Shown piece after piece: positions 2,601-17,081 of a stretch of DNA of 23,334 bases (positions within the stretch are counted from its first letter, which is position 1; every line of letters starts with the position of its first letter). The notes under the pieces were generated by a model that saw only the letters and a list, made by a program, of their open reading frames with translations, made no database searches and was not told where the DNA came from. A program made the position numbers and the translations under genes. Source of the stretch: Thermoproteota archaeon (GTDB taxonomy: Archaea; Korarchaeota; Korarchaeia; Korarchaeales; Korarchaeaceae); assembly GCA_027491395.1 (NCBI GenBank), contig JAOZFI010000047.1:1-23334 (forward strand). The letters run 5' to 3'.

Positions 2601-3431
2601 CTAATGGCCACTCCCCCTGTCCTTGAGCACATCCCTACCCAGCTTGGACAGGCGTATCAGGCTTCCGGACCTAGTTCGCTCCACCTCTACGAGCCCTTTG
2701 CCCTCCAATCGCCTCACCCTCCTCCAAGCAGTGGTCTTAGGGAGTGATAGCTCTTCCCTTATGGTGGAGAGGCTCTTCTCACCCTCCACAAGTGAATTAA
2801 GGATCCTCACATCCATTGAATCCAGCTCGAACTTATTGCCACGGGACCTGCTGTTCAAGAGAATAAGGACAACAGCTAGAGCCGGCAATATGGCCAATAG
2901 GTAATACGGGAGGTTATCTCTCCCCCTGTCCTCCCTAGGAGGGTTCGCATAGACATACTCTATGGTGAAAGGAGGTTCTATAGTCAGTTCCAAGTAGGAG
3001 GGCCCCTCCCGTATGGAAACGGGGGTCTTGGAGAGTCCTACTACATCGGGATGTCCCATCAATCTGACTGATATTAGCGAGTACGATGTGGCGGATACGT
3101 TCAGGCTCCAGACTAGTCCCCTCTTATAGGTCAGGCTCTGGGTCTCGTAAGTCACATTGATCTCGTCGGCCACCTCGGCATCCACTATGATCTTGTCACC
3201 GTTCAGCGTGTAGTTGAGGGGGAGGTCCCCCTCGTCCACGACAGATAGAAGGGTGGGCTGCCCCAAAAGCGGTATCTCGACTATAGGATCCTGAACAGGC
3301 GCTCTGATGCTGACGGTACACCACCCATCTGGGTATACCTCTATTACCGCGTTTGTCGGGCCTCCCACAGCTGTGATCAGCGTTACTATAAATACTGTTG
3401 CGAGTAGTGATGATGAGAGACCCCGTCTCAT
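2601..3431 (-). CDS. Membrane-anchored transcriptional regulator (signal/TM, extracellular beta domain, TM, C-terminal wHTH; COG2512-like)
   Basis: N-terminal hydrophobic segment, second TM YYLLAILPALAVVLILL, then the winged HTH LDSMDVRILNSL...LSTIREELSLPKTTAWRRVRRLEGKGLVEVER. Confidence 0.85.
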   Translation of the reverse strand: MRRGLSSSLLATVFIVTLITAVGGPTNAVIEVYPDGWCTVSIRAPVQDPIVEIPLLGQPTLLSVVDEGDLPLNYTLNGDKIIVDAEVADEINVTYETQSLTYKRGLVWSLNVSATSYSLISVRLMGHPDVVGLSKTPVSIREGPSYLELTIEPPFTIEYVYANPPREDRGRDNLPYYLLAILPALAVVLILLNSRSRGNKFELDSMDVRILNSLVEGEKSLSTIREELSLPKTTAWRRVRRLEGKGLVEVERTRSGSLIRLSKLGRDVLKDRGSGH

Positions 3432-5844: not shown

Positions 5845-6904
5845 CTTCATTCCTGGGCCAGTCAATCCCAGTCCCAGAGTAATGAGAGCGCTCAGCGAAC
5901 CGATGCCCTACCACAGGGGAGAGGAGTTCTCGAGAATGTACGAGGAGATCGTTGAGAGGGTGAAGCCCCTCTTCGGTGCTGAAGGGGATGTCGTAGTCAT
6001 CAGTGGATCCTCCACTGCTGGACTCGAGTCGGCTCTAGCGGGATTCGCGAGGGGCAGGAATGTGGTGGCTATAGTCGACGGCAAGTTCGGGGAGAGGTTA
6101 GCTGAGATATCATCCCTCTATGCTAAGGAGGTCACGATGGTCCGTTCTGAGTGGGGTAAAACACCCCCTCAGGAAGAGCTGGAAGCTTCCTTGGGAGGTG
6201 CTGACCTCTTAGCGGTCGTTCACAATGAGACATCTACGGGTATCGAGCATGACATGGATCTTATAGCGGACCTAGCGTCAGATAGAGGAGTTGATCTTGT
6301 GGTGGACGTTGTGAGCTCGATAGGAGGTATTGAGGTGAAGGGGGATAGATGGAGAGCCAAAGCCCTAGTGGGGGGAGTTCAGAAGTGTTTAGGTGCTCCA
6401 CCGGGCTTGGCACCTGTGATGGTAAGGGACTGGGAGGGTTACGGAAGAGCTCCTTACTACCTAGACCTGACGATGTACCAGAGTTCTGCTATGGGTAACC
6501 TCAGGCAGACGCCCTTCACCCCAGCACTTCCACTTTTCGCAGCTCTGAGGGCCGCGCTCCGGGAGATACACTCAGAGGGGCTGGAAGCCAGGTTCCTTAG
6601 GCATTGTAGGATGGCTGAACTCCTGAGAGAGGGATTAGAGGAACTTGGAGTGGAGCTGTTCGCGCTTCCCGGTGAATTAGGCAGGTTGTCCGATACCGTG
6701 ACCTCCTTCATGGTCCCCAATCCAGAGGTGGTTAGGAGGGAGCTGGCGAAAGGGGGCATACTAATAGCGGGAGGACAGGGTCCTCTGAGGGGAAAGATAC
6801 TTAGAGCTGCCACAATGGCCGGTGTCACGGAGGGAGACATTCAATTACTGCTGTCCCAATTGGGAGAGATTCTGAGTAAGATCACCTCAAAAGTTCCCTC
6901 CTGA
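5822..6904 (+). CDS. Class V PLP aminotransferase (serine-pyruvate / archaeal phosphoserine aminotransferase family)
   Basis: FIPGPV, MPYHRGEEF, GKFGER, VHNETSTG, VDVVSS and QKCLGAPPG (PLP Lys), QTPFTP. Start moved to the in-frame TTG at 5822 downstream of GGAGGT (5805-5810). Confidence 0.9.
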   Translation: MTSGFKISFIPGPVNPSPRVMRALSEPMPYHRGEEFSRMYEEIVERVKPLFGAEGDVVVISGSSTAGLESALAGFARGRNVVAIVDGKFGERLAEISSLYAKEVTMVRSEWGKTPPQEELEASLGGADLLAVVHNETSTGIEHDMDLIADLASDRGVDLVVDVVSSIGGIEVKGDRWRAKALVGGVQKCLGAPPGLAPVMVRDWEGYGRAPYYLDLTMYQSSAMGNLRQTPFTPALPLFAALRAALREIHSEGLEARFLRHCRMAELLREGLEELGVELFALPGELGRLSDTVTSFMVPNPEVVRRELAKGGILIAGGQGPLRGKILRAATMAGVTEGDIQLLLSQLGEILSKITSKVPS

Positions 6905-8459
6905 CCTCTTCTTTCAACCTGCCTGAGAAGGCTTCAAGTAATGAATCCACATCCATTTCAAATGTCTGCTCCTCCTCGTTCCACAAGTCAACGGGTATCT
7001 GCCAGTTGGAGGGACCTGCGACCAATAGATGCTCGACTCTTATCAGCTGATCGCTGAAGAGCGTCCTCAGGGACTTCACGAGCGTACCTAAGATCTTCTC
7101 GTTAACTAGGATGACGCTGGTTATCCCCGTAAGGGAACCTTCGGTGTAGAACATTATCGGGGAAGATACCTTGGAGAGGGCCTCTCCTATCCTCAGGAAG
7201 TCCTTGTAGGGGGCATCGAATCTAGCTAGCACCGCCTCTCCCAAACCCACTCCAGTGGGGAAGTATCCCTTAACTACTAGCCCGTTTCTCCTGTACCTAG
7301 CGAACCTCTCCGCTGCATTAGGTACGCCAATCCTTCTGAGGTAGGAACGAGAGGCCTTTCCCTGACTGTTGATCACACTGAGCGCAAGGATGTCCTTTTT
7401 ATCCAGTTTTATCGGGGGCTTGATTCCCCTGTAAACCCCCCTCCAAGTGGGAGGGGTATCCGATGCTCTGGAGTAGCCGTCAACCATGAGACCCAGTACT
7501 TCTTCAGATTGTATTTCGTCTAGAGAGTGAAGATCAAACGAAAAAAGAACCTCCTTTCCTGTTCGAAGTCCATCTCCTGATAATTTAGTAAATATCCTCT
7601 CGTATTTGAGAGGTACTAAGAAAAGAATGTAGTAAGTATTGTCCTCAGCTACATAAACATTGTAGGTAAAAGGGAATTTCTCTATGAACTTTATTTCATG
7701 AGGCCCGGGATCACTTAATTCAGTTACATAAATGGTCAGCCCCATTCTCAAAGGGAATATTGTATAAGGTCCATGAACTATGTTCCTTCCAATTAAATCC
7801 TTGAGAGCTCTTGAGATAGAAGCAAGAGAGAGCCCTGTGTATTTTGCCAAATTTTCTAGCTTGGCATCTTCAGAACGAGTGACGTAGACGAGCGATCTCA
7901 GGACCTGTAGTTCTCTCTTAGATAGCTTGATAGACGGATATCTCCTAGCTATCGAAACCAAGAGTAAATAGTCCTCTAAGCTAATATCTCGCCCTCTCTC
8001 CAGATATAGAAAATTTATAGCCTTAAGAACGCTCTTGACTACACCAATCCTTTCTCTGATATTGTAGGCCTGAAATATCTCAGGAGCGTAGTAAGGAGGG
8101 ACCGTAGGTAGTCCTACCCTCTGGGTGCACTCAGACCACCAAGATGGATCGGCGTTAGAGTATGCCCATGCCAGATCATAGATGTGGGGGAAATCAAGGG
8201 GAGGTAAAAAACGGATGAAAGCTTCCCTTTTGATTACTATCCCAATCCTATCGGGCGAGAGATCCCTACTTACGAGAAGATCGCTGCCCTCCTCCTTAAC
8301 ACCGCTCCTGAGATTTTTCTCTATCTTAACGTCTGCCAGTAAAACTCTCTTGGGAATTCTCCTCACAGGATCCATCCCCAGCTCTTTTTGGATCTTCCTA
8401 ATTTCCTCTTGGAAAAGTTTAGTCAGATCCTCATTTTTTTCATGTCTCTTCTGTTGCAC
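6882..8459 (-). CDS. Large hypothetical regulator: unknown N-terminal domain plus two tandem wHTH/Lrp-AsnC-like modules
   Basis: 525-aa ORF. HTH1 is LSKRELQVLRSL...LENLAKYTGLSLASISRALKDL followed by PLRMGL; module 2 is IKLDKKDILAL...RNGLVVKGYFPTGVGL. Confidence 0.7.
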   Translation of the reverse strand: MQQKRHEKNEDLTKLFQEEIRKIQKELGMDPVRRIPKRVLLADVKIEKNLRSGVKEEGSDLLVSRDLSPDRIGIVIKREAFIRFLPPLDFPHIYDLAWAYSNADPSWWSECTQRVGLPTVPPYYAPEIFQAYNIRERIGVVKSVLKAINFLYLERGRDISLEDYLLLVSIARRYPSIKLSKRELQVLRSLVYVTRSEDAKLENLAKYTGLSLASISRALKDLIGRNIVHGPYTIFPLRMGLTIYVTELSDPGPHEIKFIEKFPFTYNVYVAEDNTYYILFLVPLKYERIFTKLSGDGLRTGKEVLFSFDLHSLDEIQSEEVLGLMVDGYSRASDTPPTWRGVYRGIKPPIKLDKKDILALSVINSQGKASRSYLRRIGVPNAAERFARYRRNGLVVKGYFPTGVGLGEAVLARFDAPYKDFLRIGEALSKVSSPIMFYTEGSLTGITSVILVNEKILGTLVKSLRTLFSDQLIRVEHLLVAGPSNWQIPVDLWNEEEQTFEMDVDSLLEAFSGRLKEEVRRELLR

Positions 8460-8626
8460 ACTAATTAGTGTCGTTAGGGCTAATAAAGTTTTTCTTCACA
8501 TGAGATCGGTTGTAATATTACTTATTACACCAGCAATACACCCTCTTGTCGGTCTACTAAATAAAATGAGCAAGTACAGACCATATAGGTTTGGTCTACA
8601 TAAGTAGTAAAGGAGGAAGGAGGTTG

Positions 8627-8677
8627 ATGGATATGGTGATCGGGCCAATTCATCCGCCCGCTCCTCCTGTAAAGTGA
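8627..8677 (+). CDS. Putative 16-aa Pro-rich micro-ORF MDMVIGPIHPPAPPVK
   Basis: Strong SD AGGAGGAAGGAGGT (8611-8624) directly upstream; TATA-like TAAATAAAA at 8558-8566. Confidence 0.55.
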   Translation: MDMVIGPIHPPAPPVK

Positions 8678-8760
8678 GCTCTCCATCACTTATTTTCTTA
8701 TCTATCAGTTTTCTCCTCTTTCGGTATTTGTTGAAAAAAATGTCGGAGCACAACATTTAA
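8674..8760 (+). CDS. Putative 28-aa hydrophobic micro-ORF MSSPSLIFLSISFLLFRYLLKKMSEHNI
   Basis: Its GTG overlaps the preceding TGA (GTGA) and its TAA overlaps the next ATG (TAATG). TM-like core followed by basic residues. Confidence 0.35.
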   Translation: MSSPSLIFLSISFLLFRYLLKKMSEHNI

Positions 8761-8798
8761 TGGGGGGAGGTCCAGATCCACCAAGGGATGATCCATAG
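8760..8798 (+). CDS. Putative 12-aa micro-ORF MGGGPDPPRDDP
   Basis: The ATG lies in a TAATG overlap; its TAG overlaps an in-frame ATA of the downstream gene (ATAG). Confidence 0.35.
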   Translation: MGGGPDPPRDDP

Positions 8799-8902
8799 AG
8801 TACAAAGAGGGAAAAGCTGACAATACGATTTACATCGCAGCTATAACAGTAAAAGAATTCATCAAGAATGGGGCTGAGCCTTTAGAGCCACTCTCCTCAA
8901 TC

Positions 8903-9847
8903 TTGGTAGAGAGGCTGGGTGAGGAGTGGAACATCCTCATTACTAAGCAAGATCAGAAGGCTGAGTTCAGCTTCGGTCTGGGAGTTACTTTAAGGTCAGA
9001 GCCTGTTGAAGATTGGGTAGTGGGTCTAAAGTTCCTAAGAAACGGGGAAGTGATGGTGGGGACTCTAGGTAAATCGGTCAAGGTGAGATTGGGGGAAGAC
9101 AGGGAGACGATACTGTTGGCTTCGGAGCTCGCGGCTCTCGCCCTTTACCTCTATAGGAATCCCTTAATGTGCCTGAGAGAGAACCTCATAGTGACGGGGA
9201 TCTTCTACCTAAACCCGTGTGTGTGGTCTGATCCTGCGATTTCAGGTATAGAGCTGGCCGCAGCCTTCTCAGCGATCTCGAAGGGATTGGAATTGGAGAA
9301 GAGATACAGGTCTTTCGTGAAGGCCCTCCACTTCCTGAGTCAACTGGATCACCTGCCGGAGATAATCAGGGCACTTAAAGCCTTAGCAGTGATAGGCGTG
9401 GCCCCGCCTCTGAGCAAGAGGGACCTTTTCTATGTGGATCAGCTGTCCCCGGTAGAGATAAAGGTCCTGAACGCTCTCACAGCCAAGGAGGCCATAGACA
9501 GGCTGTACGGTTTGGATGAGAAGAAGGTTGTTGCGCTTCTATCAGAGCTGCTGGGATTGAGATCGGAGACCTTCGATAGGAGAAAGCTAGTCAGATCCCT
9601 GTCCCAGAGGGAATCCAAGGAAGGCCTATCATTGAGCGAGATCTCCCATGTTCTAGGGATCGATAAGGCCTACCTCTGGAGGGACGTCCTTCCCAAGATG
9701 ATAGAGCGCTTCCTCATTACCGTGGGAAGCGACAGGTACAGAGGAAAGACCGTTAAGGTCTACAGGCCCAATATATCCCTGCCGACAATAGGAGATATGG
9801 TGCTCACTTATACGCTCAACCTCAGCTACCTCGTCACTAGGGGCTGA
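8903..9847 (+). CDS. Hypothetical protein with C-terminal winged HTH; frame open upstream to 8792
   Basis: LSPVEIKVLNAL...GLSLSEISHVLGIDKAYLWRDVLPKMIERFLI...GKTVKVYRP. The start codon is uncertain. Confidence 0.72.
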   Translation: MVERLGEEWNILITKQDQKAEFSFGLGVTLRSEPVEDWVVGLKFLRNGEVMVGTLGKSVKVRLGEDRETILLASELAALALYLYRNPLMCLRENLIVTGIFYLNPCVWSDPAISGIELAAAFSAISKGLELEKRYRSFVKALHFLSQLDHLPEIIRALKALAVIGVAPPLSKRDLFYVDQLSPVEIKVLNALTAKEAIDRLYGLDEKKVVALLSELLGLRSETFDRRKLVRSLSQRESKEGLSLSEISHVLGIDKAYLWRDVLPKMIERFLITVGSDRYRGKTVKVYRPNISLPTIGDMVLTYTLNLSYLVTRG

Positions 9848-9849
9848 TA

Positions 9850-10434
9850 ATGAGGTTGAGCAGAGATTTCTTCTGCAGGGATCCAGTGGTGGTAGCCAGA
9901 GATCTCCTTGGGAAGCTCCTAGTCAGGGAATTTAAGGGGGACAGAATATCTGGGGTTGTGGTGGAGACAGAAGCGTACCTAGGGAGGAACGACAGGGCCT
10001 CCCACGGTTTCGGTGGGAAGAGGACGCCAAGGATGTGGCCTCTCTACGAAGGATGTGGCTTATTCTACATTTACCCGGTTCACGGCTACGCCATGCTGAA
10101 TGTTACGACTGCGCCACCCGAAGAGCCCACAGCCGTCCTCATAAGGGCCCTAGAGCCCGTGGAGGGCGTGGATATCATGAGGAGGAACAGAGGAACTGAT
10201 GATGCGAGGAACCTGTGTTCTGGCCCTGGGAAGCTCACTAAGGCGCTTGGTATTACCTTAGAGATGAACGGCTTGAGCGTCGAGGACGGACCTCTCTACT
10301 TCGAGGAGTACATGAGGGTGGACGAACGGGAGATAGTGGCCACGAAGAGGGTGGGAGTGGACTATGCTGGCAGGCACGCGGACCTTCCCCTTAGGTTCTA
10401 CTTGAAGGGAAACAGGTACGTATCAAGGCCATGA
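9850..10434 (+). CDS. mpg: 3-methyladenine DNA glycosylase (MPG/AAG family)
   Basis: VARDLLGK, VETEAYLG..DRASH, AVLIRALEP, SGPGKL, KRVGV, PLRFY. Confidence 0.95.
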   Translation: MRLSRDFFCRDPVVVARDLLGKLLVREFKGDRISGVVVETEAYLGRNDRASHGFGGKRTPRMWPLYEGCGLFYIYPVHGYAMLNVTTAPPEEPTAVLIRALEPVEGVDIMRRNRGTDDARNLCSGPGKLTKALGITLEMNGLSVEDGPLYFEEYMRVDEREIVATKRVGVDYAGRHADLPLRFYLKGNRYVSRP

Positions 10435-11643
10435 TCCCCTGAAGATGACCTCGACCTCCTCCGGATCCACCTCTCCGTTCCCATTGTCATCCATCCACCT
10501 AACTATGATGACTCCATCGATCCCTCCCTCTGCTATCTTGATCGCCGCCACCCGAGTCCCGAATCTAGTGAGACCCTCTCCAAGTACTATCCTCCTACCG
10601 CTCCTCTCGAGAGATGTCACCAAGGCGTAATCTGAGCGACCATACTCCACTTGGAACCTCCACACGCGATCGCCCAGCTTAATAATGCCCTTCGACCCGT
10701 CGATGTCCACCACTATCCCCAGCTCCTCGTTGAGTCGAGCCGCCAGCTCATTGGCCTTGGGACCGCCGAGGATTATGATGTTGCCGTCTGGCAGTTCATC
10801 TCCAGCTTTCCTCGCCTCCAGACCTAGGATCGAGGCCGCTTCACGGTCATGCTCTCCGTAAAGGACCCTGAAATGCACACCAGATGAAATCTCGGCTCTG
10901 ACTCTGCGCTCCTCGACGGTGGAGCCAGCGATCACCCTCACAACCCACTCCCCTGGCTCCGAAAGGGTAAGGGATATCTGGAAGTGTCCTGACGAGACCA
11001 TGGCTGAGTATTCCTCCTCGACCCCATTAGGGGAAACCAAGACTATCCTGACGCCGTTCACTCCGGAGGCGGTTCCGCTAACTACTAGGGACTCCCCCAC
11101 CTCCACCCTGCTCGGGATGTCAACCTCTAGATCTACCAGCCGGTAATAGGCCTCCTTGACCTTCTTAACGGTGACTGAGACCATATCAGGAATATAAGGG
11201 ACGTCTTCAGGTTCTATCTTGACGAATAGGTTGCCAGATGGATCTATTATCACCACCGTGGCTGTGTACTTGATGCCGAAGTAGAGGAGATGGGACCACG
11301 AGACCGTCAGGAGGATCCAGCTGGACGGAGGATTATAGCTCCTGAAGGCTGGCAGTACAGCCTGAGGATTCGAGGGTGAATACATGGCGACGGCTGCGAC
11401 GTAACGACCACTGGAGAGTTCGGGGTCGGTCCTCCAAGCATCGGCAAGCAAGGGTATGAACTTCTTGCAGTGAGAGCAGGTGGGCTGACTGAATATGAGA
11501 ACGACGACCTTTCCCCTGTAATCGGAGAGCTTGAAGGTCCCTCCCCCATAGATCGGGGCCTCGAACCCAGAAGCGGAGGTAGGGAGGCTGGACAGACAAA
11601 GCATCGACAGCAGAAGTAGTGTGATCGCTCTCTTCATCATCAA
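10423..11643 (-). CDS. Secreted TlpA/redoxin-domain protein with Ig-like and S-layer C-terminal-like domains
   Basis: Signal peptide; LSDYRGKVVVL...TCSHCK; NIIILGGPKANE; Ca-binding-like tail WMDDNGNGEVDPEE. Confidence 0.8.
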   Translation of the reverse strand: MMMKRAITLLLLSMLCLSSLPTSASGFEAPIYGGGTFKLSDYRGKVVVLIFSQPTCSHCKKFIPLLADAWRTDPELSSGRYVAAVAMYSPSNPQAVLPAFRSYNPPSSWILLTVSWSHLLYFGIKYTATVVIIDPSGNLFVKIEPEDVPYIPDMVSVTVKKVKEAYYRLVDLEVDIPSRVEVGESLVVSGTASGVNGVRIVLVSPNGVEEEYSAMVSSGHFQISLTLSEPGEWVVRVIAGSTVEERRVRAEISSGVHFRVLYGEHDREAASILGLEARKAGDELPDGNIIILGGPKANELAARLNEELGIVVDIDGSKGIIKLGDRVWRFQVEYGRSDYALVTSLERSGRRIVLGEGLTRFGTRVAAIKIAEGGIDGVIIVRWMDDNGNGEVDPEEVEVIFRGSWP

Positions 11644-14145: not shown

Positions 14146-14922
14146 TCATCCCCTCCCAGCCACCTTCCTGTACTCCCTCTCCACTAGGCTCTGAGCTAGA
14201 TCCAAATATATCTCGGTGGTTCGAAGGCTGCTGTGTCCCAAGATGCGCTGTAATACTCGGGGATTCCCTCCCTTGGAGAGGAACCAGACCGCGAAGGCGT
14301 GCCTCACAGCGTGGGGATGGGTCTTCAGCAGCTCGGAAACCCACCTCCTGATGGTGCGGTCCGTCACTGGGAAGATTTTTCCGTTTCCATTCTTAGGTAG
14401 CTCCCCCAGCAGTTCAGCGGTGCGCTCGGTGAAGTAGACGTACCTGAACTTCCCCCCCTTCCCCCTCACTCTGGCTCTCTTCCCGTTTAGATCCACATCC
14501 TCCCATCTTAACGAGACCAGTTCGCCCACCCTCATGCCAGTCTCCGCGAGCATCATTATTGCCGCCCTCTGGAGGGGTTTGGCCGTCGAGAGTATTTCAT
14601 CCATCTCCTCGTAAGTCTTCAGAAGGTCCTCGTTTACCTTAGGAAGGGGGGGAGGGACCCTTATCTCCTTCGCGAGGGCTCTGGCCTCCTCGCTCAAGTC
14701 CTTTCTCCCTGCCACCTTGAAGAGCCTGCTGAGCATGTAGAGCTGCTGCTTTAAGGTGCGTCTGTTCACCTCTTCTTCCCTCTTAGAGGCCCATATTCTC
14801 ACATGAATCGGTTTAGCTTCCTCTAATGGTACCATCTCCAAGAAGGAGGTAAAAACGGGCCTGTACTTCCTCTTACTCGAAGGAGCTAAACCCGCTAGGG
14901 CTGCTTCAACGAGGGCATTCAT
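14146..14922 (-). CDS. xerA: Tyrosine recombinase, XerA-like
   Basis: Complete catalytic set: TGMRVGEL (R), GKGGK (K), HAVRH (HxxR), LGHS (H), TTEIY (Y). 258 aa, in a housekeeping-like context. Confidence 0.85.
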   Translation of the reverse strand: MNALVEAALAGLAPSSKRKYRPVFTSFLEMVPLEEAKPIHVRIWASKREEEVNRRTLKQQLYMLSRLFKVAGRKDLSEEARALAKEIRVPPPLPKVNEDLLKTYEEMDEILSTAKPLQRAAIMMLAETGMRVGELVSLRWEDVDLNGKRARVRGKGGKFRYVYFTERTAELLGELPKNGNGKIFPVTDRTIRRWVSELLKTHPHAVRHAFAVWFLSKGGNPRVLQRILGHSSLRTTEIYLDLAQSLVEREYRKVAGRG

Positions 14923-16465: not shown

Positions 16466-16861
16466 TCAGGGGATCAACCTGATCCCGAGTCCGTTGAAGT
16501 GCTTCCTATCCATGGTGGCTAGGTCCGATCCTGAAACGGACGCGGTGGCGGCCACCAAGATGTCGCTGAAGGGTATCGGTCTCCCCCCCTTCCTCCTCAG
16601 CTTGGTGTCAAGTTCTAAGGCCCTGACCAGGATGTCCTGGTCTGGTTCCACGATCATCCCAATTTCGTGAAGTAGATCCTTCCTACCCATTGCTGCATCA
16701 GGTCCTCTAGCCAGATAGTGGCCAAAGAGGTATTCGTAGGCCACCACCCAAGGGATCATTATCCTCTCATACTCGGCGATCAGATCAACGAGTTCTTCCC
16801 GGCCTCTGTCCAGCAGTTCGATCAGGAAGGATGTGTCCAAAACGACGTTACCACCACTCAC
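16466..16861 (-). CDS. vapC: VapC PIN-domain toxin
   Basis: Acidic tetrad VLDTSFL, AYEY, PFSDILVAA, TMDRKHF. Start moved to the GTG at 16861, which overlaps the end of vapB. Confidence 0.92.
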   Translation of the reverse strand: MSGGNVVLDTSFLIELLDRGREELVDLIAEYERIMIPWVVAYEYLFGHYLARGPDAAMGRKDLLHEIGMIVEPDQDILVRALELDTKLRRKGGRPIPFSDILVAATASVSGSDLATMDRKHFNGLGIRLIP

Positions 16862-17081
16862 GTGACTCGACTTCTTTGACGATCTCCTCAACTTTATCGG
16901 CCTCTTCTTCACTCAGTCTCGAGCTCCTGACGAGATCCTTCAGTCTTTCCCTCTTCCTCTTCAGATATTCGTCTATAAGCCTGTCTATGGTCTCATCTAG
17001 GCTTTTAGCTCTCATTCTCTCCTTGAGAGATTTGAGCCTCCTGTAAGTGTCCTCCCTAACCGAGATTACTTTACCCATCAT
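16848..17081 (-). CDS. vapB: VapB-family antitoxin (RHH-like)
   Basis: KVISVREDTYRRLKSLK...SLDETIDRLI; directly upstream of and overlapping the PIN gene. Confidence 0.88.
   Translation of the reverse strand: MMGKVISVREDTYRRLKSLKERMRAKSLDETIDRLIDEYLKRKRERLKDLVRSSRLSEEEADKVEEIVKEVESREWW

Follow-up and report, generated by a model that had tools for sequence, protein, structure and literature searches.

A proline-rich micro-gene family beside genes for tandem Lrp/AsnC-like proteins in Korarchaeota

Described peptide receptors, Lrp/AsnC proteins and the korarchaeal locus

Lrp/AsnC proteins are among the commonest transcription regulators of archaea and are known to sense free amino acids. To our knowledge no peptide/receptor pair is known from archaea, and a literature search outside bioRxiv supplements and subscription journals found no such pair described there. 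In Firmicutes, peptides and their receptors are encoded together in the LCP/RopB and RRNPP-type cassettes (PMC10518010). Here we describe a micro-gene for a proline-rich peptide of 14 residues (micro-ORF1, ORF standing for open reading frame) that lies, in a Thermoproteota archaeon of the family Korarchaeaceae, between the divergent genes for a 525-residue protein (p525) and a winged helix-turn-helix (wHTH) protein. The stretch of DNA analysed, hereafter the window, is the entire 23,334-bp contig JAOZFI010000047.1 (contig C30 of the source genome G000, assembly GCA_027491395.1), and the genome, from an uncultured organism, measures 1.72 Mb and is 98% complete. The label Candidatus Korarchaeota is borne by close protein relatives of the window's products. 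The related loci that were compared with the window carry L-numbers.

The korarchaeal locus resembles the RRNPP and LCP/RopB systems in that a very short, unprocessed-looking peptide gene stands beside the gene of a cytoplasmic regulator, and in that paralogous pairs have their own peptide 'code'. It differs from them in the build of p525, which consists of helix-turn-helix (HTH) and RAM domains whereas their receptor is a tetratricopeptide repeat (TPR) protein, as well as in the Pro-rich PPxPP peptide, in the archaeal host and in a binding that is here predicted. Because p525 has no TPR domain, the system is not a member of the RRNPP/LCP-RopB class and at most works alike.

With the Lrp/AsnC 'feast/famine' proteins, p525 shares the HTH and RAM folds and a predicted ligand site between two RAM domains, but it fuses two such modules behind a conserved N-terminal domain of ~170 residues, and its putative ligand is an encoded peptide of 12-17 residues. 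According to their entry titles, the Foldseek matches of p525 include amino-acid-bound Lrp/AsnC proteins (ST1022 with glutamine, 2efq; Rv3291c with Phe, 2vbw; an L-Ile regulator, 9w4w). NirDL/AhbAB (PDB 4ch7, 4czc) likewise have a fused tandem Lrp/AsnC fold with the ligand between the modules, but they are enzymes of haem d1 or alternative haem synthesis with 10% identity to p525, which has the extra N-terminal domain.

Described systems of another kind work through proline codons. In bacteria, the coupling of transcription to translation at polyproline depends on EF-P (PMC5021804), and the proline codons of mgtL control mgtA mRNA levels in Salmonella (PMC6460261). As in those accounts, micro-ORF1 combines a very short frame with many Pro codons and a terminator-like element downstream of it, and a dependence on EF-P/aIF5A is plausible; the differences are taken up below.

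A conserved proline-rich micro-gene between p525 and wHTH

An earlier note on this DNA had read the region between p525 and the wHTH gene as a chain of three translationally coupled micro-ORFs, led by a very strong Shine-Dalgarno (SD) sequence and leading by overlaps into the open wHTH frame. Re-reading of the sequence confirmed that the SD, the three frames and their start/stop overlaps are present (GTGA at 8674-8677, TAATG at 8758-8762 and ATAG at 8795-8798; Table 1). Only one of the three frames, micro-ORF1, is a real micro-gene. It was found with an ATG and an SD-like motif, at the same place, in 17 of the 17 loci of the genus, and again in 10 of the 10 metagenome loci with enough upstream DNA, three further loci being too short.

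The SD-like motif in the window, AGGAGGAAGGAGGT at 8611-8624, is complementary to the 3′ end of the 16S rRNA, which reads GGAUCACCUCCC in three genomes of the genus. Upstream motifs of this type take the form GGAGGT in the window group and GAGGTGAT in the distant group, both of them complementary to the 16S end. ATG 8633 lies 9 nt past the GGAGG core and aligns with the sole ATG of the distant orthologs, and on grounds of alignment and spacing is the best start of micro-ORF1 in the window.

The peptide encoded in the window, MVIGPIHPPAPPVK, has Pro at 5 of its 14 codons. Its general form is M-x-G-P-(I/L/V/M/F)-x-P-P-x-P-P-(I/V)-x-stop, which is replaced by M-N-V-P-P-A-G-P-P-A-P-P-stop in lineage L010. 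The stop codon, which may be TGA, TAA or TAG, comes two codons past the second PP pair in 16 of the 17 loci and directly past it in one. Since a stop codon stands directly before the ATG in three loci, micro-ORF1 cannot belong to a longer frame. Mean entropy over the 17 loci was 0.49, 0.45 and 1.28 bits at codon positions 1, 2 and 3, respectively, and in the Gly codon and five Pro codons the first two positions were invariant and the third always variable, with up to four synonymous codons in use. This conservation check, with 17 of 17 loci and variation at third positions, upheld the proposal that micro-ORF1 is an SD-led Pro-rich micro-gene with synonymous-biased change. The pattern points to a genuine coding micro-gene under peptide-level selection, for which translation is predicted.

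Two frames on the other strand were considered as coding sequence and rejected. A frame antisense to the PPxPP region has no canonical upstream start in 13 of the 17 loci and is broken in the window, and an 86-aa ORF on the minus strand (8496-8756) was judged not to be coding because the variable sites fall at its second codon position.

That micro-ORF1 is untranslated, its conservation being due to an operator, a small RNA or another element at the DNA or RNA level, strikes us as scarcely credible. The region does lie between divergent promoters, where operators are expected. Speaking against such an element are the period-3 variation with all four synonymous Gly and Pro codons in use, the conserved positions of ATG, SD and stop with all three stop codons employed, and the paralogous loci in which different DNA encodes the same peptide architecture. 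The region also has no Rfam match and no conserved fold: RNAalifold found no conserved RNA structure around micro-ORF1, with a consensus of -0.17 kcal/mol over the 17 loci. In the window alone, a pyrimidine tract further downstream is able to pair with the SD region (z=-3.9); L008, L011 and L016 do not show this pairing.

Proline-rich micro-ORFs and the p525 protein family

To be counted under a definition that had been fixed beforehand, a micro-ORF had to be 9-25 codons long, to contain a PP pair and no fewer than 4 Pro at a Pro content of 25% or more, and to lie on the strand opposite the gene, either up to 300 nt upstream of it or up to 250 nt downstream. Such a micro-ORF accompanied all 4 p525-family genes of the source genome, as compared with 40 of its 710 other long ORFs (5.6%). 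Among distinct complete family genes the pairing was found for 28 of 36 (20 divergent, 8 convergent), or for 30 of 36 under looser criteria, the 36 being genes from loci returned by searches, which include kin that are not independent and fall into some six to eight separate peptide/protein groups. For the source genome as a whole, 21 of 1121 SD-led ATG ORFs of 8-30 codons had PPP or closely spaced PP pairs. One micro-ORF on contig C51 (618-659, plus strand) encodes M-S-G-P-x-I-P-P-S-P-P-P-T, which is the architecture of micro-ORF1, and is convergent with a p525-paralog gene at 19 nt from its stop.

The pattern ATG-x-G-P-x-x-P-P-x-P-P occurred at 19 places in 18 of the 21 genomes of the genus, the reversed control at none, and the extra hits again adjoin p525 paralogs. 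A strict DNA pattern of micro-ORF1 gave 0 hits in 22 genomes of the phylum outside the genus; a looser, protein-anchored census found diverged versions in genera g2 and g3. Those of g2, seen in three genomes, read M-(Q/E)-G-P-G-x-P-x-P-V-P-P-D-A-P-G and lie divergently, 166-178 nt upstream. Each paralog group has a distinct variant of the peptide. Two paralog groups show a third-position bias of their own: counted by codon position, variable sites amounted to 2, 3 and 9 of 11 across 5 loci of one, and to 2, 2 and 9 of 15 across 3 g2 loci. Family members have 4-9 Pro in 11-23 codons. Among 29 distinct micro-ORFs, an SD-like motif precedes 25, ATG is the start codon of 27, and 21 are followed within 70 nt by a run of T5 or more, a run met at 2.4% of random genome positions. 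The downstream neighbours of the micro-ORFs differ, with a wHTH gene at the window-type locus only. The micro-ORFs are tied to the p525 family, not to wHTH.

Some further micro-ORFs were noted along the way. Two unannotated Pro-rich ones flank a tandem of p525 paralogs on contig C15 of the source genome, one on each side (7954-8025, minus strand, divergent; ~11302-11355, minus strand, convergent). In several paralogous micro-genes, as at L098 (3164-3260) and L076 (640-700), a GC-rich hairpin of 8-9 bp takes its 5′ arm from the last Pro codons and is followed by T5-T6; these hairpins resemble intrinsic terminators of the bacterial type, which a ribosome would melt on terminating.

Relatives of p525 reach beyond the phylum. 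A full HMMER search against 1.84 billion representatives returned 157 proteins at E<=0.001, 53 of these at E<=1e-10, and the distant near-full-length hits were labelled Asgard and Thorarchaeota; a word-indexed search with the p525 alignment yielded no new relatives. Thorarchaeota relatives match the p525 profile at E=4.9e-10 and near full length. One of these distant hits, P0096, led as query to 10 Thorarchaeota loci (L135-L144), and a divergent Pro-rich micro-ORF was present in 9 of the 9 that include upstream DNA; for query P0081 no related loci were found. The Thorarchaeota micro-ORFs have 12-19 codons and no obvious SD, and end in P-P-x-N-P-(P/T)-E-P-(W/F) or nearly so, whereas those of Korarchaeota are SD-led, have G-P...PPxPP and lack the terminal E-P-W/F. 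An undescribed family of Pro-rich micropeptide genes accompanies the p525 family throughout Korarchaeota, and Thorarchaeota relatives carry one too. It is conceivable, though we advance this tentatively, that Korarchaeota and Asgard archaea share an ancient system of fused double-Lrp regulators, each switched by its own Pro-rich micropeptide of 9-17 residues that is private to the paralog.

The earlier description of the 525-aa protein as a tandem-Lrp protein holds, because Foldseek matched its AlphaFold model to NirDL (E=1e-6, 360 columns) and, at probability 1.00, to many Lrp/AsnC regulators. The model (predicted local distance difference test, pLDDT, 88; predicted template modelling score, pTM, 0.83) has an N-terminal domain of ~170 residues and two modules, at 181-308 and 354-480, in which an HTH is joined to the beta-alpha-beta-beta-alpha-beta fold of a RAM domain. 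Membership in Lrp/AsnC is given by fold alone, with sequence models below their cut-offs: HTH_36 was the only Pfam family seen, below cut-off, and nothing exceeded the cut-off in Pfam, NCBIfam or PDB sequences. Some of the paralogs carry the Pfam HTH families PF01022, PF13412 and PF01325.

When p525, together with its alignment, was co-folded with the 14-residue peptide, the score came to 0.77 (median of 0.03, 0.87 and 0.77), and the best of 3 controls scored 0.02. In a calibration on pairs of which none had a chain shorter than 30 residues, 58 of 80 solved complexes attained this mark, as against 2 of 110 mismatched pairs. RAM1 (241-308), the RAM2 loop and sheet (396-449) and a C-terminal part (481-487) make up the predicted interface. 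It contains or adjoins Y399, P401, G403 and W486, which are invariant or nearly so across paralogs, and all 14 residues of the peptide are buried in the cleft between the RAM domains. The predicted complex supports, without proving it, a binding of the peptide between the two RAM domains of p525.

This might in turn indicate that the peptide is the cognate ligand of the back-to-back p525 and changes the action of p525 on their shared control region, a proposal for which we consider the balance even. Micro-ORF1 itself is a self-contained unit with an A/T box ~70 nt upstream, an SD, an ATG, 14 codons, a stop within a hairpin and T-tracts. On the proposal, its peptide would bind in the RAM-RAM cleft, where single-domain Lrp/AsnC proteins bind amino acids, and the bound peptide would alter the activity of p525 on a region of 370 nt with the promoters of p525, the micro-gene and wHTH, an inverted repeat and an invariant 16-mer. 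It might act inside the cell only, or else be exported and sensed between cells. Two readings had been offered at the outset, a peptide/receptor cassette with p525 and a stalling leader of the wHTH gene; the former fits better, because micro-ORFs follow p525 paralogs in both orientations without wHTH and because the peptide co-folds into the RAM-RAM cleft, and the latter fits less well.

Several observations weigh against the peptide as ligand. No export, import or processing genes adjoin the locus, and no conserved transporters or modifying enzymes lie near it. Between 6 and 8 of the 36 family genes have no recognisable micro-ORF, and, related loci not being independent, the truly separate peptide/protein groups number about six to eight. 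As to the co-fold, one of the three runs scored 0.03, the calibration was without chains as short as the peptide (below 30 residues), and the peptide's own fold is uncertain (partner pLDDT at least 46, contact agreement between runs at least 21%). The regulator role of p525 is one that we infer, since its top fold match is the enzyme NirDL. A search of sequencing runs found no RNA run holding the locus, and DNA runs with at most 0.14 of its words. Moreover, the invariant PP pairs would also be needed by a ribosome-stalling sensor, and read-through into wHTH is possible because the T-tracts of the window group are only T4.

Those last points belong to an alternative in which micro-ORF1 is a translation-sensing leader. 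Slowing at PPxPP, dependent on aIF5A or on prolyl-tRNA supply, would act over the stop hairpin and T-tracts to set termination against read-through; the target would be wHTH-mpg on the same strand or, in antisense, the p525-type gene of convergent paralogs. Both this mechanism and these targets appear unlikely to us. Every ortholog does have 12-16 codons with two Pro-Pro pairs near the stop, the middle residue being A, G, D, N or L; the prolines are its most constant feature, and the lineage of L010 and L049 has dropped C-terminal residues and gained a third PP, which suits a stalling motif over a fixed ligand. In many members the last codons or the stop lie within a hairpin (-10 to -20 kcal/mol in several) with T5-T8 behind it, the tracts of the window group being weak (T4); spacing to wHTH is conserved within groups, and bacterial precedents exist (PMC5021804, PMC6460261). 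At the window itself a leader position would be feasible, as wHTH follows on the same strand. Against a leader, however, 8 of the 28 micro-ORFs are convergent to the 3′ ends of p525 paralogs, and so not 5′ leaders, and others stand before unrelated genes, with no single downstream target. In distant orthologs, wHTH is preceded at leaderless distance by a TATA box of its own. RNAalifold finds no conserved alternative structure, including any terminator/antiterminator pair, and the conserved positions are not the prolines alone but also G-P and the flanking hydrophobic ones; in their orientation, RNA structure and non-Pro positions, the micro-ORFs thus differ from the mgtL and EF-P cases. All four Pro codons are used interchangeably, and for this reason no sensing of rare codons is indicated.

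Another possibility is that p525 is an enzyme or chaperone-like protein with the peptide as its substrate, precursor or small subunit, in the manner of ribosomally synthesised and post-translationally modified peptides. We regard this as quite improbable. It would agree with the best fold match of p525, NirDL, in which the tandem Lrp/AsnC fold has turned siroheme decarboxylase, with a gene pairing that is tight whatever the orientation and with the complete burial of the peptide (14 of 14 residues) in the inter-RAM cleft. Both HTH units are nonetheless kept in the p525 model, some paralogs belong to Pfam HTH families, and the vicinity holds no conserved modifying enzymes or transporters. The layout speaks against it as well, since divergent genes with shared promoter DNA are typical of autoregulating regulators. 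Siroheme-pathway genes were absent from the neighbourhood of the p525 locus.

Control elements, overlapping frames and neighbouring genes

The elements of the region between p525 and wHTH, which is 370 nt long and common to both genes, are collected in Table 1 together with the adjoining genes.

Table 1. Features in and around the p525-wHTH control region (window positions)
Feature	Position	Strand	Description
p525	6882..8459	-	525-aa protein; N-terminal domain and two Lrp/AsnC-like HTH-RAM modules
p525 TATA box	8480..8487	-	TTTATTAG, preceded by an A-rich stretch resembling a B recognition element (BRE)
Inverted repeat, candidate operator	8511..8529	.	7-nt arms at 8511-8517 and 8523-8529, 5-nt spacer
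A/T-rich box, candidate micro-gene TATA box	8557..8568	+	~65-75 nt upstream of the micro-ORF start; conserved in 17/17 loci
Shine-Dalgarno	8611..8625	+	double GGAGG core ending GGAGGT
micro-ORF1	8633..8677	+	14-residue peptide; in-frame ATG 8627 would add two residues
Hairpin and T-tracts	8672..8712	+	arms 8672-8677 and 8686-8691, including the ORF1 stop; T4 at 8693-8696 and 8709-8712
ORF2	8674..8760	+	GTG 8674 to TAA 8758-8760; chance frame across hairpin, T-tracts and 16-mer; no gene
16-nt element	8731..8746	+	invariant or nearly so in 17/17 orthologous loci
wHTH TATA-like box	8755..8761	+	overlaps ORF2 stop and ORF3 ATG
ORF3	8760..8798	+	chance frame across the wHTH promoter-to-start spacer
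wHTH gene	8792..9847	+	open frame from 8792; stop 9845-9847
mpg	9850..10434	+	methylpurine-DNA glycosylase; Pfam PF02245, E=4.1e-59

The TATA box of p525 is kept in all aligned loci as TTTATTAG or TTTATATAT. Its hexamer lies 28 nt upstream of the p525 start codon, a GTG that is conserved in the alignment; TATA-like hexamers peak genome-wide at -30 to -27, and the p525 mRNA is probably leaderless. When the 100 nt ahead of 29 micro-ORFs of the family were scanned for TATA-like hexamers, 32 of 41 hits came to lie at -80 to -71. The inverted repeat, situated between the A/T box of the micro-gene and the promoter of p525, is kept in close relatives and has a different inverted repeat as its counterpart, at the same position, in distant ones.

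At the other end, the hairpin at the ORF1 stop (8672-8691) has a predicted energy of -5.9 kcal/mol, and the distant orthologs show T5-T7 runs 11-13 nt past this stop and a second T5 further on. The hairpin with its T-tracts is the probable 3′ end of the micro-transcript. The 16-nt element may serve as an operator or belong to a promoter. It was rejected as a regulon motif for lack of genome enrichment: with up to 3 mismatches allowed it occurs 12 times genome-wide, and its reversed control 8 times. An A-rich core of 11 nt is repeated in inverted orientation at 8432-8447 (minus strand), within the opening codons of p525; at the GAA AAA codons there, no synonymous site varies over 16 loci, which suggests a DNA- or RNA-level constraint, possibly through paired operator sites. 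Aligned with the wHTH TATA-like box there is, in distant orthologs, an unmistakable TATATATA whose distance to the GTG or ATG start of wHTH is 29-30 nt, the distance at which TATA-like hexamers before long ORFs peak in the genome.

ORF2 and ORF3 run across these elements. How often chains of overlapping frames arise by chance was estimated from 5000 dinucleotide-preserving shuffles of 8600-8910, that is one 311-nt stretch read on one strand and uncorrected for the remainder of the window: chains of at least three ORFs appeared in 4.6% of shuffles for ORFs of at least 8 codons, in 3.2% for at least 10 and in 1.8% for at least 12. The chain does not, at 1.8-4.6%, stand out from chance. It was also followed locus by locus through 17 aligned orthologous intergenic regions. 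Only the window and L004 (2 of 17 loci) have the same ORF1-ORF2-ORF3 arrangement, L003 has a different chain, and in 10 of the 17 loci no ORF starts at the ORF1 stop. ORF2 has no start in L005 and spans 16-38 codons in the other close relatives, and in the 17-locus alignment its stretch has indels of lengths not divisible by three. Variation in ORF3 is not biased by codon position (5, 5 and 7 of 13 sites variable per position), its ATG is ATC in L006, and L009-L018 have no counterpart; its product, put forward earlier as a second Pro-rich peptide, is not conserved. Neither ORF2 nor ORF3 has an SD or a coding signature. They are accidental frames across terminator-like, operator-like and promoter DNA, and the eye-catching coupled chain is largely a by-product of promoter and terminator DNA.

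The protein encoded by wHTH was modelled (pLDDT 86) with a beta-rich N-terminal domain, a helical domain and a C-terminal winged helix; matches of the last to ArsR/MarR/TFE-alpha-type chains reach a probability of 0.9-0.99, though their E values exceed 0.001, and nothing exceeded the cut-off in Pfam, NCBIfam or PDB sequences. The first canonical in-frame start is TTG 8903, which is TTA or CTA in L008 and L009, and no in-frame ATG, GTG or TTG precedes 8903 in the window, L003, L004 and L007. Since 8825-8848 encode a confident beta strand in the model, the protein begins upstream of TTG 8903. Third positions are favoured among variable sites in 8828-8902 (8, 7 and 16 of 25) and not in 8792-8827 (7, 4 and 6 of 12). 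ATA 8795 is invariant in six close relatives without an in-frame ATG, and the stretch upstream of it could pair with the 16S 3′ tail. ATG 8788, at a near-leaderless 33 nt past the TATA-like box, is also conserved, +1 out of frame in 6 of 7 close genomes and in frame in L005 only. A programmed +1 frameshift from ATG 8788 was considered unlikely, there being no slippery site and the stop of that frame varying per genome. The options for the wHTH start are a non-canonical codon, a +1 frameshift or something else, the candidate codons being ATA 8795, ATT 8828, ATC 8834 and TTG 8903.

A ribosome relay, with ORF1, ORF2 and ORF3 translated by termination-reinitiation and ribosomes delivered to ATA 8795, would provide such a start; we hold it to be very improbable. 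The overlaps do exist in the window, the wHTH frame has no canonical start before 8903 though its N-terminal strand lies upstream, an ORF3-type frame ends on the invariant ATA in five of the six close relatives, and the four close genomes without an in-frame canonical start all have the ORF3 ATG. Yet the full chain is confined to the two loci named above, ORF2 is truncated or startless in several of the closest relatives, the downstream frames have neither SD nor coding signature, and similar chains turn up in 2-5% of shuffles. Distant orthologs, moreover, start wHTH plainly with a leaderless GTG or ATG. Across the 17 loci, the coupling of three ORFs into wHTH was not upheld, as neither ORF2 and ORF3 nor their overlaps are conserved.

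The wHTH gene was detected in 20 of 41 related genomes including the source genome; for the same genus the count is 17 of 20. Upstream of it, p525 is found in 15 of 17 loci, contig ends cutting off the remaining two; the p525-wHTH gene pair is conserved in the genus. The mpg gene, whose ATG follows the wHTH stop after 2 nt, stands after wHTH in nine loci (L002-L010) and not in L011-L018, and is for that reason no constant part of the module. A scan of the whole window found no tRNA and no Rfam family. Elsewhere on the contig, a 276-aa protein with a C-terminal winged helix of the TrmB/MarR/AsnC type is encoded at 2601-3431 (minus strand), a further orphan regulator. About 5 kb downstream lie a phage-integrase-family gene (14146-14922, minus strand) and a PIN-domain gene (16466-16912, minus strand) with three orphan ORFs between them; this stretch may be a small integrated element unrelated to the micro-gene.

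The chain as originally read is mostly an artefact, and its first member leads to an undescribed, widely conserved pairing of micropeptide and tandem-Lrp protein. Genes of 12-17 codons are invisible to gene callers. The case is amenable to direct testing, since the peptide can be made synthetically and p525, one chain of soluble appearance, is modelled with confidence and has a predicted pocket. If the proposed binding is true, a branch of Lrp/AsnC that senses an encoded peptide would be a new type of input for archaeal gene regulation, and its pocket would be the first of the Lrp/RAM kind to read a ribosomally made peptide instead of an amino acid. The pairing would be old and widespread, because it is conserved from Korarchaeota to Thorarchaeota, and it would constitute the first peptide-based regulatory code in archaea, possibly one of cell-to-cell signalling.

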